A stretch of 32,000 nucleotides of DNA, taken from the NCBI RefSeq assembly GCF_000237865.1, contig NC_017459.1:2730001-2762000 (forward strand), given 5' to 3'. Origin of the DNA: Haloquadratum walsbyi C23 (GTDB lineage Archaea; Halobacteriota; Halobacteria; Halobacteriales; Haloferacaceae). Shown piece after piece: positions 11,410-24,102 of the stretch. Under the pieces are notes generated by a model that saw only the letters and a list, made by a program, of their open reading frames with translations, made no database searches and was not told the DNA's origin. A program made the position numbers and the translations under genes. How positions within the stretch are numbered: position 1 is the stretch's first letter; the number at the start of each line of letters is the position of its first letter.

Positions 11410-12288
11410 CTACCGCTGAGCATTCTCCTGTTTACTTTGGTGCTGCATCTCAGTGCTATCGTTATTGATTGTTGCTGCGTCGGATCCCGAATCACCTCCT
11501 GAGACAATATCAAGAAGGACTACTTTCCCAGTTTCGTGTGCAGCAGCGAGTTGAGATCCAAAGAGTGCAGTTTGTTTATTATCATCTCCTCGCACTGGAA
11601 TGAGTACGTGATTGTCCGCTTGGACAGTTTCATAGAGATACTGCGCACGTTGTTCATAAAATTCGTTTCGCCAGATAACAAAAACTAGCGCAATGAGTAT
11701 CGATGCGAACATAATGCTCAGTACATATACAACTGGGTCAACCTCTCCTGTAATGAGCGTTAATAGCACTGTCGAAAACGCTGAGGGCGCTTCAATCCGC
11801 GCAAGCCACGTGATTATTCCGGTTAAGAAAATGGCGAGTGCAGCACTTTCTGGTCGTACGATCGCTCCACCACTTCCGTTTTGACATCCTCCCCGCGCTG
11901 AAGCGCGAGGCTTTCTCCTCGATTCTCCGTAAATGACTTGGGTAATGACTGCGGCAATCAACCCACACAACGCCCCAACGCTGAGACTACTAACAAATCG
12001 TACAGGGCTTGCATAACGACCTTCGGGGTCCGAAAATAACGTATAGGTCCCTGCAGCGAGTGGTGGAAATAATAAAAACGAGAGTATCGGTAACTGATTT
12101 GAGATATATGTTACAAATGCAATAAGAATCGGAATTAATAAAACAACTGATACATGGAGTAAATTATCAGTATACTGAAGCCACCGCTGAAGGGCGCTCA
12201 CTTCACGACGTCCGAATCGTCGAATCCGAGCATATACGATTGTCAGTTGCTTACGTGCACTTCTCATAAAATAGGCGATTGAGGGCAT
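11410..12288 (-). CDS. HPP-family-like integral membrane protein with a truncated C-terminal Usp domain
   Basis: Multi-TM protein containing LLFPPLAAGTYTLF...LSVGALCGL (HPP-like). The C-terminus VLIPVRGDDNKQTALFGSQLAAAHETGKVVLLDIV has the beta1-alpha1-beta2 pattern of a Usp domain, followed by TAG. The start is uncertain: ATG 12288, ATG 12267 or TTG 12339. Confidence 0.6.
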   Translation of the reverse strand: MPSIAYFMRSARKQLTIVYARIRRFGRREVSALQRWLQYTDNLLHVSVVLLIPILIAFVTYISNQLPILSFLLFPPLAAGTYTLFSDPEGRYASPVRFVSSLSVGALCGLIAAVITQVIYGESRRKPRASARGGCQNGSGGAIVRPESAALAIFLTGIITWLARIEAPSAFSTVLLTLITGEVDPVVYVLSIMFASILIALVFVIWRNEFYEQRAQYLYETVQADNHVLIPVRGDDNKQTALFGSQLAAAHETGKVVLLDIVSGGDSGSDAATINNDSTEMQHQSKQENAQR

Positions 12289-13083: not shown

Positions 13084-13494
13084 ATACACTGACTCTCGCG
13101 TTGCAGTGAAAAACCACGTGATCCCTGTGGTTGCTTTCCTTCGTTGTTATTGGATATATATCCACACTGAGTGAAAATTGACATCCTCCCGCGTCTTGCA
13201 ATACTCCGTGAAGCATTTTGAACCATCGGTCCTACGCAACAGTATTAGCAGCTACTCTACGACAAGATTTTGAATTGAATTCTTCAATAAGTTTTTAGAA
13301 GCACTACGGGACTCCCACGGTACCGCACCGCTGAGTTGGGAATTTTAGCTGCAGGTTCATAGACTGCCAAGCCGACACATCGTGTGAATCGATGTGCAGT
13401 CAGACAAGGGACAGCCTCTTGAGAGTGCCACATCTTATCCCCTGGTACTCCTATCCTCAGCCGAGAACGCGTTCCTGTGTTAGTTTCCCCACAG

Positions 13495-14070
13495 GAGCGG
13501 TGGTCAGTGGTCGGCACTCGGATTCACCAGATTCAGAGTTACTTATCTTGATGATTGCTCGTCGCCTGTTATTTGATTCCCCGAAGGGCACATCCTGTGT
13601 CCAGTCTCGGTGGACACTCACACTCGAAGCACTAATTGTCGAGTATGCGGTTGCACTGGGATCGTAACCAGCGTGTCGACATATCAGTGCACGATATTGT
13701 AGAACAAGAAAGCTCGAAAATTTTCCCGTCCCCGTTCCCGTTTGACGGCGCGCATCCACATGTTAAACGCTGTCTTTTACCCATAAGTTCGTGGAGTCGT
13801 AACCGGACATTTCAGACGCTCTCAGAGATATTTTGAACGCAAAAAATCGAGGCGAGAAGCGATTCAGACAGTGATATCGGCTGTGGGGGTGACAGAACGC
13901 CGGTAATCAACGCCACTACAATTATTCCAAAGAGATGCTGGAACTGTAGATACCGAGAATTTCAGTCATGCTCGCCGATCCCGATCCCGTTCCGCTAAAA
14001 TCCTGACTCGAGTTGTGGGTAAGAGACAGATGTTAAACGGCATCGTATTGCGCCTGTTCAACTAATAATA
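13495..14070 (+). repeat. intergenic repeat family R, copy C1 (interrupted by a nested MITE; may extend left to about 13290)
   Basis: 13523-13628 aligns without gaps to the reverse complement of 23932-24037, with 95 of 106 positions identical. The shared blocks TGACGGCGCGCATCCAC (13743-13759) and ATTGCGCCTGTTCAAC (14047-14062) become contiguous once 13770-14039 is removed. 13444-13458 (GGTACTCCTATCCTC) matches copy R3. Confidence 0.8.
13770..14029. mobile_element. 260-bp MITE nested inside repeat copy C1, with IS4-family-like ends
   Basis: Terminal inverted repeats CTGTCTTTTACCCA (13770-13783) and TGGGTAAGAGACAG (14016-14029) match at 13 of 14 positions. A perfect 10-bp direct duplication ATGTTAAACG flanks it at 13760-13769 and 14030-14039. 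It contains no ORF. The sister copy at 23.8 kb has the uninterrupted site. Confidence 0.85.
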
Positions 14071-14143
14071 ACGTCATTTTAGCAGATACGTGTATATCAC
14101 CTCACCAGTGAGTATATTATTTCGCTGCGTTAATTATCGAAAG

Positions 14144-17714: not shown

Positions 17715-17895
17715 ACCCACGCACTGGGCTATCCGGCGACAAAACGGTATCGAAGATTCGGGTCAAAAACACGGTTGAACATTTGGCATTTCCTCGGTCC
17801 GAAAACAGGGATTTACTCTTGAAATTTAAATATACTCGTAAGCTTCCCTTACTGAGATGCACCCCCACACTATCTATGGAATGCGTGAAGTCCGT

Positions 17896-18487
17896 CTTAT
17901 TATATGCTGAGCAGGCGCAATACCACGGTCTTCAGGCCGTGGATACGCGCCGTCACGCCCTCCAAAGTCCTACTGTCGTCGCTTGATTCAAATTTAAAAA
18001 TACATACATTTAACTGACAGGCAATCACGCAATAAAACAGGAATCGGTTGGAAACAGAGCGATTCCCGCCAGTCCTACGATGGCGGCCTGTCCGCCCCAA
18101 GCAATAAGACAATCATCGGAACCAGTCTGGTGAACGGTCGGTTCCTATGATGAACCGATGCTGTGCCCGACTGCTTGAAAACACCACAGAAAGTAACTCC
18201 GAGTTTGCTAACGCCTGCCGGCGTCCCTGCGGCAAAAATAACGCTTGGACGCCGTATATGGTCGAGAATAGGAGTACCGGCGGCTTGGCACCGCCAGCAG
18301 TCCCACCCGCACCCGCCTCAGACCGCGAACAACCCTTCAGATTCGCACTGGCTGGTTGTTCGGTGGGAGCGTGAAACCTGACACTCCCAACGCTCGGGAT
18401 TCCTCCGCGTGAACCCGGAGGAGGATGTCAATGGGGTCCTTTGGCATCTTCCGGCGCCTAAATACGCCTTCGTGGATGCCCGGTCGG
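17896..18487 (-). repeat. intergenic repeat family R, copy R3 (longest copy; includes a GC-rich structured part at 18145-18487)
   Basis: Shares TGGATACGCGCCGTCA (17940-17955), the 38-nt end hairpin (17914-17951), CAATCATC...AGTCTGGTGAA (about 18108-18135) and GAGAATAGGAGTACC (18264-18278) with other copies. Two 60-nt lines counted by hand (18301-18360 and 18361-18420) have 37/60 and 39/60 G+C. Confidence 0.6.
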
Positions 18488-18498
18488 TTTTTTTATTA
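18487..18498 (+). promoter_or_regulatory. candidate TATA box for a leaderless deoC transcript
   Basis: The T/A-rich box TTTTTTTATTA is centred about 27 nt upstream of the deoC ATG (18519). This is the spacing typical of leaderless haloarchaeal mRNAs. Confidence 0.3.
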
Positions 18499-18518
18499 GT
18501 GGGATGTAGGCTATTAGT

Positions 18519-19178
18519 ATGAATATCGAGGAGCTTGCAGCACGGATTGATCACACCGTTCTCGGACCAACAACGACCATGGATGAGGTTACTGATGTAC
18601 TTTCGGACGCAGCCGCGTATGGAATGAATGCCTGTATTCCGCCATGTTATCTTGATGCTGCAGGTGACACTGATATGGTCACAGATTCTGGTGTGACGCT
18701 GGTCAGTGTTATTGGATTTCCACATGGGCAGCACGCTTCTATCGCAAAGCGAGAAGAGGCTGTGACTGCATGGCAGGCTGGTGCTGATGAAATTGATGTT
18801 GTCCTCAATATTGGTCGACTAAAGACGAGCGCAACCGAGACCGTGACCCATGATATTGCAGAAGTTGTTGCGGCGGTTCCCATTCCTGTCAAGGTAATTA
18901 TTGAGACAACGCTTCTTAACGATGATGAGAAACGTCGTGCCTGCAAAGTCGCTGTTGATGCCGATGCTGATTTTATAAAAACTTCAACCGGGTTCGCTAA
19001 TGGTGGTGCGACAACTGCAGATGTCGAAGTTCTTTCATCATACCTTCCGGTAAAGGCAAGTGGTGGAATTAGTTCATATGAAACAGCGAAGTCAATGCTT
19101 GATGCTGGGGCTGAACGAATTGGTGCCTCAGCGGGTGTAGAGATTCTTGAAGACGCACCGGATGTTTATTATGATTGA
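18519..19178 (+). CDS. deoC: deoxyribose-phosphate aldolase
   Basis: 219 aa. IDHTVLGP near the N-terminus and the Schiff-base lysine context DFIKTSTGF are typical of class I DERA. Confidence 0.9.
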
Positions 19179-23777: not shown

Positions 23778-24051
23778 TTATTGTTGAATAGGCGCAATCC
23801 AGCGCCGTTTACATCGTGGATGCGCGCCGTCAGACGAAGACGGGGAATTTCGAGCTTTTTTGATATCGTGTACTGATATGTTGACATGCTAGTTACGACC
23901 ACAGTGCAGTCGCATGCCGGAAGATCGATAATTCGTGTGTGAGTGTCCACCGAGACTGGATGCAGGGTGTACCCTTCGGAGAATCAAATAACAAGCGACG
24001 GGCAATCATCAACATAAGTAACTCCGAGTCTGGTGAAACCGGCTACCGCTC
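23778..24051 (-). repeat. intergenic repeat family R, copy C2 (compact and uninterrupted)
   Basis: Its reverse complement aligns to C1 throughout. The core 23932-24037 has 95 of 106 positions identical. The 38-nt end hairpin is at 23791-23828. The copy fills almost the whole spacer between two convergent genes. Confidence 0.85.
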
Positions 24052-24102
24052 TTATATCAAAAATATTAGTTATGATTAGTGCCTGAGTATAGATTTTAAT
24101 TT

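Follow-up and report, generated by a model that had tools for sequence, protein, structure and literature searches.

The GC-rich, hairpin-dense stretch upstream of deoC in Haloquadratum walsbyi C23 is the interior of the gene-less transposable element HqIRS56 and carries a predicted TnpB guide-RNA scaffold

Upstream of the deoC gene of the haloarchaeon Haloquadratum walsbyi C23 lies a GC-rich stretch densely packed with hairpins, which is the interior of a 532-bp gene-less derivative of the IS200/IS605 family of insertion sequences, the palindrome-associated transposable element (PATE) HqIRS56. The window analyzed here comprises 32,000 nucleotides (C1:2730001-2762000 of a genome of four contigs, the largest of 3,148,033 bp, with 47.8% G+C), and the HqIRS56 unit occupies its positions 17900-18431 on the plus strand. 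Comparison of sequences suggests, with a probability of roughly 80%, that this element produces a guide RNA of its own and relies on TnpB supplied in trans. An earlier note on this DNA, made from the sequence alone, had singled out 18145-18487 as a possible unannotated structured RNA. At 59.2% G+C, compared to 46.9% for the window, that stretch is indeed GC-rich, although its 60-nt lines hold 32-38 G+C rather than the 37 and 39 counted in two of them. The feature is real yet largely ordinary, given that the element has already been catalogued and that a guide-RNA interpretation extends a known concept in a routine way; the odd structured stretch is explained as part of a known mobile element, so that the initial puzzle is closed rather than opened.

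The PATEs of H. walsbyi were reported by Dyall-Smith et al. in 2011 (PLoS One 6:e20968; PMC3119063), and row 646 of Table S5 of that work lists C23 2747900-2748431 as a 532-bp strain-specific HqIRS56 insertion, at the site of which strain HBSQ001 has just 4 nt. Combined with the offset of the window, these coordinates place the element exactly at 17900-18431, with the start at 17900 if the TTATA target is included and at 17905 otherwise. The termini agree with the published HqIRS56 ends (Table S9), apart from one base in the hairpin at the 5' end. Membership of the window copy in the HqIRS56 family is established, and this copy is a recent, strain-specific insertion. Among complete copies, for which lengths of 532-574 bp are given (Table S9), it is the shortest, not the longest as the earlier note had supposed, and it is the sole complete copy inside the window. 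The family counts 19 copies in C23 and 23 in HBSQ001, including 7 strain-specific insertions in each strain (Table S8).

That the module is repeated, a point the earlier note had proposed to settle by BLASTN, was clear from a blastn comparison of 17850-18560 with the same genome, which returned 12 further copies at 74-95% identity, spanning 17896/17900 to 18431/18432, and about 20 remoter copies at 66-79% identity over 18039-18432. When the 13 close copies (window copy included; 74-100% identity) were aligned together with their flanks, they displayed exact common ends, with TTATA directly followed by TGCTGAGC on the left and a terminal GATGTCAA on the right, between unrelated flanking sequences. 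The left start, TTATA joined to TGCTGAGCAGGCGCAATACC, is found in 12 of the 13, the remaining copy having CTATA; the right end, GGAGGAGGATGTCAA, is present in every one, with divergence immediately beyond it, and all copies bar a few diverged ones end in TCAA. Neither terminal inverted repeats nor a target duplication were found in these aligned copies, the upstream TTATA being the sole likeness between flanks, and imperfect hairpins are located just within both ends, at 17914-17951 and 18402-18421. Subterminal imperfect hairpins without terminal inverted repeats or target duplication are the signature of IS200/IS605 elements, as known from IS608 and ISDra2. The fixed target of 4-5 nt 5' of the insertion and the fixed cleavage motif at the right end that characterize IS200/IS605-derived PATEs are both present as well. 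The element contains no transposase-sized open reading frame (ORF), the longest internal frame in the ORF listing being 75 codons.

The TTATA target at 17900-17904 (plus strand), which would also be the transposon-adjacent motif (TAM), is likewise present in copies of other genera and in ISHwa21, an insertion sequence of the same species, and is the HqIRS56 targeting sequence given in Table S9 of PMC3119063. The left end (17905-17960, plus strand) folds into the imperfect hairpin 17914-17951, in which GGCGC-AATA-CCACGG and CCGTGG-ATAC-GCGCC enclose the loop TCTTCAGG; in 6 of the 13 close copies, a small mobile repeat of about 107 nt resides within this loop. The right end (18402-18431, plus strand) consists of the hairpin CCTCCG-cgtgaacc-CGGAGG, with arms at 18402-18407 and 18416-18421, followed by AGGATGTCAA and terminating in the TCAA cleavage site at 18428-18431; it is identical to the right end of ISHwa21 in 36 of 37 nt. 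The adjoining 18432-18487 is host flank, common to both sequenced strains, so the module had been drawn too far to the right in the earlier note, the conserved unit being approximately 18039-18431. Length differences among the close copies always result from gain or loss of tandem hexamers (GATGCA, CGCTTG, TAGGAG, CCCGCN, GGTGGG), at 18158, 18243, 18268, 18305-18316 and 18362. Because CCCGCN and GGTGGG lie on opposite strands of one helix (P3, described below), that helix lengthens through slippage on both sides.

The 3' half of the element is, judging by homology, a scaffold of a TnpB guide RNA (omega-RNA, also termed sense-overlapping transcript RNA, sotRNA), at 18191-18431 on the plus strand; the full-model Rfam match, the layout of the tnpB-linked copies and covariation all point to this assignment. 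In an Rfam 15 scan of the window, in which weaker matches were taken by E-value threshold, RF02656 (sot0042) aligned to 18191-18422 on the plus strand only, over the full model (positions 1-174), with 37.3 bits (E 7.7e-8), whereas the gathering score of the family is 88 bits. The tnpB-linked RNA of ISHwa21 itself also falls under the gathering score, at 62.9 bits. Membership in RF02656 by Rfam's own threshold is not established; the architecture and the chain of homology appear clear from the alignments. The transcripts from which RF02656 was built overlap, in sense, the 3' end of IS1341-type tnpB genes in Halobacterium salinarum (Gomes-Filho et al. 2015, PMC4615843), and these sotRNAs are now regarded as omega-RNAs (PMC12558985). 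The strongest matches to this model in the genome (63-155 bits) are located directly 3' of matches to the TnpB TNB domain, for example 1912409-1912609 and then 1912617-1802.

Placed side by side, the cmscan alignments of the PATE copy and the tnpB-linked RNAs share the same order of elements: P1, formed by AAGUAACUCCGAG ... GGAGUA; a GGCNG-UUGGCA-CNGCC hairpin; P3; a single-stranded AAACC; a UCCC/GGGA stem; and the right-end hairpin. In the window copy, P1 has an enlarged tip and is followed by the hairpin GGCGG-CUUGGCA-CCGCC, by P3, also with an enlarged tip, by the single-stranded AAACCUGA, and by the UCCC/GGGA stem and the right-end hairpin. All hairpins listed in the earlier note were recovered upon direct reading of the sequence, at or within 1-2 bases of the positions it gave. 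Apart from the right-end hairpin, these are GGGAGCG...CACTCCC (about 18364-18388), CGAACAACC/GGTTGTTCG (18326-18334 and 18354-18362), GGCGG-cttggca-CCGCC (18279-18295), GGCGTCC/GGACGCC (18220-18226 and 18247-18253), GGAATCG/CGATTCC (18040-18046 and 18060-18066) and GGCGG-cctgt-CCGCC (18082-18096). Between the end of the RF02656 match and the TCAA boundary there are 9 nt, and past this boundary the flanks diverge at once. Because the scaffold ends at the right end of the transposon, the guide would come from the flanking DNA.

The sense overlap with the 3' end of tnpB that characterizes the founding members of RF02656 was not found: there is no tnpB upstream of the window copy, just a 75-codon open frame (18147-18374, plus strand) that represents a remnant of the C-terminal tail of TnpB rather than a gene. 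This frame has a weak blastx match to residues 401-449 of ISHwa21 TnpB, and the two share ESNSE, encoded by the start of the omega-RNA, AAGTAACTCCGAG. A protein-coding reading of the 75-codon frame and of a 72-codon frame was rejected, given stop codons in 3 of 13 copies, the lack of a start codon in most copies and the absence of a Pfam match; because all length differences are hexamer duplications, the reading frame is kept trivially.

Other classes of RNA fared no better. A housekeeping RNA (RNase P, SRP, group II intron, HEARO and others), which in the earlier note would have spoken against an element-borne RNA, was rejected because no Rfam 15 family reached its gathering score in the window, RF02656 included; the multi-copy, strain-specific nature of the element bears on the same question. 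C/D-box small RNAs (sR36 and sR14, E 2-6) were rejected because the C-box-like AUGAUGA is not conserved in other copies, and no tRNA or tmRNA was found. Of the two possibilities raised in the earlier note, that of a structured-RNA module borne by the element stands, rather than that of an independent housekeeping RNA.

The unit of about 390 nt is conserved far beyond this species. At least 20 genomes, which represent about 15 genera of Halobacteria, contain it at 69-82% identity. It is likewise found on named megaplasmids of Halomicrobium, Natrinema, Halogeometricum, Haloarcula, Halobacterium, Halorubrum, Natribaculum and others, where it almost always lies in unannotated sequence; the absence of conservation that the earlier note would have counted toward refutation was not observed. 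Several copies in other genera have the same left end and TTATA as HqIRS56, and one genome unrelated to Haloquadratum (G126) holds a PATE in which an ISHwa21-like left end is joined to the 390-nt unit. To assess the structure, we used an alignment (A4) of 23 sequences. Three come from this genome, the window copy and two diverged ones, and 20 from other haloarchaeal genomes, of which one belongs to the same genus. RNAalifold predicted 74 pairs in A4, 26 of these with compensatory changes. Altogether, 96.4% of the alignment cells at these positions are paired, compared to 89.7% in shuffles, and two-sided changes were detected in 127 cells, compared to 43 in shuffles and at most 15 when the partners were slid by 1-3 columns. 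Because the structure was derived from A4 itself and the sequences are related, these figures overstate independence; the slid controls nevertheless remain far below the observed two-sided changes. Compensatory changes occur in the hairpins of the 5' part of the unit, in P1, in the P2 hairpin and in P3, and the Rfam-type lower stem of P3 (CAGUCC:GGACUG) shows two more compensatory events. Thus, the conserved structure backed by covariation that is expected of an RF02656-type RNA was found. RNAalifold also places a long-range helix between GACUGC at 18169-18174 and GCAGUC at 18297-18302, which never varies and competes with the Rfam-type lower stem of P3; this helix is an unproven prediction of the folding model.

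We assign the RNA to the plus strand because the cross-genus alignment favors it, Rfam matches that strand only and all tnpB-linked relatives are sense-oriented. With RNAalifold, A4 folds at -82.9 kcal/mol on the plus strand compared to -67.1 on the minus strand, and among the pairs predicted on both strands, there are 32 G:U on the plus strand and 13 on the minus strand. Folding of single sequences did not clearly favor either strand and leaned slightly to the minus: 18185-18431 folds better than dinucleotide shuffles on both, with z of -2.2 (plus) and -3.5 (minus). An RNA on the minus strand was rejected given that the Rfam match is plus-only and the cross-genus alignment favors the plus strand. 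Accordingly, the minus-strand reading of the stems in the earlier note is not borne out, whereas the plus-strand direction that it proposed for the transcripts is backed by homology and covariation.

Upstream of the scaffold, the unit contains a PATE-specific 5' module of about 150 nt (18039-18184, plus strand) with three hairpins, at 18040-18066, at about 18078-18119 (enclosing GGCGG/CCGCC at 18082-18096) and at about 18120-18175, which is present in 33 orphan copies in this genome and at 69-82% identity in other genera. Helices 3-5 of A4, which make up these hairpins, show compensatory changes. The tnpB-linked modules lack this part, their homology beginning near 18186-18215. Farther upstream, A4 columns 12-18 hold a conserved TATA-box-like TTTAAC at 18009-18014 (plus strand; TTTAAG in most relatives), a predicted promoter. 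Conservation starts at the invariant AGGAATC, which a variable spacer of about 20 nt separates from the box, and the box itself is located about 25-30 nt upstream of that point. This distance suits a haloarchaeal promoter starting transcription near A18039, and the box is the putative promoter of the unit. The TATA-like strings pointed out in the earlier note, TTTAAATA at 17825-17832 and TTTAAAAATA at 17993-18002, are present but are not the conserved one, the former being outside the element and the latter reading TTTCAAAATA in most copies. The T7 run that it placed at 18488-18494 is present as well.

The predicted transcript would cross 18431 and meet T7 at 18488-18494, which would make the primary transcript about 450 nt long and agrees with the 300-500 nt guessed earlier. 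The first 20 nt of host flank past the right end, 18432-18451 (plus strand; TGGGGTCCTTTGGCATCTTC), would be the guide, a position that follows from the build of TnpB omega-RNAs. Even with up to 3 mismatches allowed, these 20 nt match nowhere else in the genome, as one would expect of a homing guide. The element lies 87 bp upstream of the deoC start codon (18432-18518 between the two) and points toward deoC, which has its ATG at 18519, a Pfam DeoC domain (PF01791) and a T-rich stretch 20-31 nt upstream of the ATG. This stretch, T7 plus ATTAG at 18488-18499 (plus strand), is probably the TATA region of a leaderless deoC and the likely stop of the element transcript. Since it could serve as both, the insertion might alter the expression of deoC relative to HBSQ001.

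Most modules of this kind in the genome are orphans. A two-round nhmmer profile of 18030-18431 yielded 96 matches in the genome, 73 of which are complete through the right end; only 6 of these 73 are directly downstream of a TnpB TNB-domain match, and the other 67 are orphans, split almost evenly between those that carry the 150 nt upstream of the scaffold (33; 18039-18184) and those without it (34). No long same-strand ORF ends in or near the unit in the 21 copies examined. A tnpB-bearing parent containing the 5' module was found neither in this genome nor among the upstream ORFs at five loci in other genera, where there was no TnpB-sized frame ending at the unit and three candidate frames lacked a TnpB domain (Pfam). 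A potential partner is at hand: two ISHwa21 copies encode uninterrupted TnpB proteins of 451 and 454 amino acids with OrfB_IS605 and TNB domains. In both of these copies (C1 2890840-2890960 and 2212740-2212830), an element with Tn5-like ends is inserted in the loop of the left-end hairpin (TCTTCAGG), the TnpB ORFs being whole. Among PATE-holding genomes, 19 of 20 have a TnpB relative (10-12 at 79% identity or higher) compared to 9 of 20 controls; because the controls were picked for having no match to a query that included the shared right end, the comparison is biased and carries little weight.

The identity of the element, its ends, copy number and strain-specific presence, the omega-RNA homology, the conserved structure, the orphan status and the intact partner TnpB are directly supported, and together they translate into a simple model. 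HqIRS56, an insertion sequence of the IS200/IS605 family (IS1341/ISHwa21-type) stripped of its protein genes, has kept the TTATA target, both end hairpins and the TCAA end for TnpA-type single-strand transposition and, inside, a putative structured RNA gene of about 390 nt. Under the model, the TATA box at 18009-18014 would start a plus-strand transcript near 18039, which would pass through the PATE-specific 5' module (18039-18184) and then the scaffold homologous to RF02656 (18191-18431), and would cross the right end into host DNA, where the first 16-20 nt of flank, from 18432 onward, would be the guide; in the window copy, the T7 run (18488-18494) would probably end transcription. Intact ISHwa21-type elements, with an identical TTATA and an almost identical right end, would provide the TnpB that binds this RNA in trans, and TnpB would cut TTATA-flanked empty sites, either those left by excision or those on chromosome copies without the insert. 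Repair by recombination would then copy the element back, resulting in retention or homing. TnpA would have to be supplied in trans as well. According to Meers et al. (PMC10055086), PATEs often encode omega-RNAs that need TnpB from other insertion sequences in trans. Transcription from the predicted start, loading onto TnpB in trans and cleavage are the steps that we infer.

Several observations weigh against this model. The RF02656 score of the window copy lies far below the gathering threshold, and the tips of P1 and P3 contain insertions of 60 and 54 nt, compared to 16 and 32 in the model of the family, an enlargement that might block binding by ISHwa21 TnpB. All ten matches to Y1 transposase (TnpA) in the genome are truncated or contain stop codons, in line with the report that the 15 tnpA copies of C23 are all disrupted (PMC3119063); with every Y1 tnpA broken, the element may be stranded in this genome. 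One genome of another genus in the same order (G007) has no relative of ISHwa21 TnpB at E 1e-30 or better; this genome has at least four full-length copies of the 390-nt unit, for example at C1:694372-694750. The strand test within same-genome copies was tied (52 G:U to 53 A:C), the pairing of the transposed top DNA strand, which tolerates G:T, is not fully separable from RNA pairing, and conservation of the unit may partly stem from recent horizontal spread rather than from selection.

Much of this would also be expected if HqIRS56 were an inert relic, that is, a decaying deletion derivative with hairpins inherited from the parent insertion sequence and an omega-RNA-like part that is no longer transcribed or used. 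The low Rfam score and the large P1 and P3 insertions, the broken tnpA copies and the PATE copies of G007 without a close TnpB all fit that view, as do the copies struck by other mobile repeats and the existence of 161-bp derivatives without the entire core. We nevertheless consider decay unlikely, given that compensatory substitutions preserve the helices in copies that represent about 15 genera and share only about 70% identity, and that the TATA-like box is conserved at a fixed upstream distance. Furthermore, the 7 strain-specific insertions per strain (PMC3119063) imply that HqIRS56 has been active recently.

It is less probable still that the structure works in single-stranded DNA, during TnpA-mediated excision and integration, and not as RNA. 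Elements of the IS200/IS605 family do move as single-stranded top-strand DNA with subterminal hairpins, both end hairpins of HqIRS56 are of this type, and, because DNA tolerates G:T pairs, the G:U asymmetry between the strands is compatible with such a role. However, the internal 390 nt are homologous to a family that was defined from detected transcripts, and the 161-bp derivatives, with the end halves alone, are found at five different sites. For IS608 and ISDra2, it is established that TnpA requires only subterminal hairpins and short guide motifs. We give equally little credence to a TnpB-independent riboregulator or decoy that, via the 5' module, would regulate host or insertion-sequence genes or soak up TnpB: the module is PATE-specific, structured and kept across genera, and orphan modules outnumber the tnpB-linked ones by about 11 to 1, yet no target or binding partner is known and, as far as the right-end boundary, the scaffold retains all elements of a TnpB-type omega-RNA, for which a pure regulator would have no use.

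Beyond the guide-RNA model itself, one can envisage that HqIRS56-type PATEs are not only remnants of insertion sequences but self-transcribing guide-RNA genes, each combining its own promoter, an enlarged omega-RNA and a PATE-specific structured 5' module of about 150 nt, spread over at least 15 haloarchaeal genera and exploiting ISHwa21-type TnpB, with the 5' module as a new functional add-on. This extension is tentative, and we consider it rather doubtful. If it holds, the 5' module might stabilize the RNA, out-compete the cognate omega-RNA for TnpB or switch between the two mutually exclusive pairings of GCAGUC (18297-18302).

What the present analysis adds to the catalogued element is the excess of orphan guide-RNA modules over tnpB-linked ones in this genome, the conservation of the 390-nt unit with compensatory changes across many haloarchaeal genera, and the presence in this unit of a 5' module and a predicted promoter that are absent from tnpB-linked omega-RNAs. 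Should the RNA be made and loaded onto TnpB in trans, Haloquadratum would represent a natural case of gene-less elements exploiting an RNA-guided nuclease. With the insertion 87 bp upstream of deoC and predicted transcription toward this gene, deoC could be affected as well.

Related elements are located nearby and elsewhere in the genome. A second, diverged HqIRS56-type PATE occupies window 13250-14075 on the minus strand, with the left end TTATTA followed by GTTGAACAGGCGCAATAC; this end is split by a miniature inverted-repeat transposable element of about 260 bp with Tn5-like ends (CTGTCTCTTACCCACAAC...) and a 10-bp flanking duplication, CGTTTAACAT. Its omega-like module spans about 13310-13558, and its right end looks truncated. 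The homology between the window copy and 13444-13458 that the earlier note reported is real and on the opposite strand; 14 of 15 bases agree, not 15 of 16. A third family member (23806-24063, plus strand) has 186 nt that are 82% complementary to 13512-13697 and includes a short omega-module match at 24001-24063. At 11881-11932, a 52-bp terminal-only (core-deleted) ISHwa23 insertion specific to C23 interrupts a gene (Table S5, PMC3119063). The five 161-bp mini-elements occupy unrelated sites (C1: 659518-659678, 2247249-2247409, 354257-354417, 512665-512825 and 1611115-1611275), and consist of the first half of the HqIRS56 left-end hairpin, the small mobile repeat of about 107 nt and the last 19 nt of the right end (ACGCGGAGGAGGATGTCAA). 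They lack the RNA core, which may have been deleted between repeats that had inserted into both end hairpins, and are perhaps still mobile.

Comparison with known systems places HqIRS56 among gene-less elements that carry guide RNAs. The published HqIRS56 (PMC3119063) is the same element, with agreement in the termini (one mismatch in the 5' hairpin), the length of 532 bp and the C23 coordinates, so that "unannotated" in the earlier note does not apply to the DNA, which has been in the literature since 2011. It does apply to the guide-RNA content: in the part of the 2011 description that was accessible, the element is treated as DNA only, through its ends, palindromes and copy numbers, with no mention of an RNA, a promoter or a TnpB guide, concepts that post-date the paper. 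RF02656 (VNG_sot0042; PMC4615843) and the PATE share the helix order, the motifs AAGUAACUCCGAG, the GGAGUACCGG hairpin, AAACC and UCCCA...GGGA, the right-end hairpin, the plus-sense orientation and the end at the right end of the element. The PATE differs in its score (37 bits compared to 88), the enlarged P1 and P3 tips, the lack of overlap with tnpB, the additional 5' module of 150 nt and an apparent promoter of its own. ISHwa21, an IS1341-type, TnpB-only insertion sequence, resembles HqIRS56 in the TTATA target, the left-end loop TCTTCAGG, the right end (36 of 37 nt) and a homologous omega-RNA core, but is 1.6 kb long, encodes a TnpB of 451-454 amino acids, has a different left-end stem sequence and is without the 5' module. 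The PATE-specific 5' module with its own predicted promoter is the only feature for which we found no description elsewhere. The PATE-like elements of Geobacillus stearothermophilus (Meers et al. 2023, PMC10055086) are bacterial and unrelated in sequence, and the available part of that study describes no PATE-specific 5' RNA module. Nevertheless, as presented there, they are gene-less IS200/IS605 derivatives that consist of ends and an omega-RNA, with TnpA and TnpB proposed to act in trans, and in these respects they are like HqIRS56.

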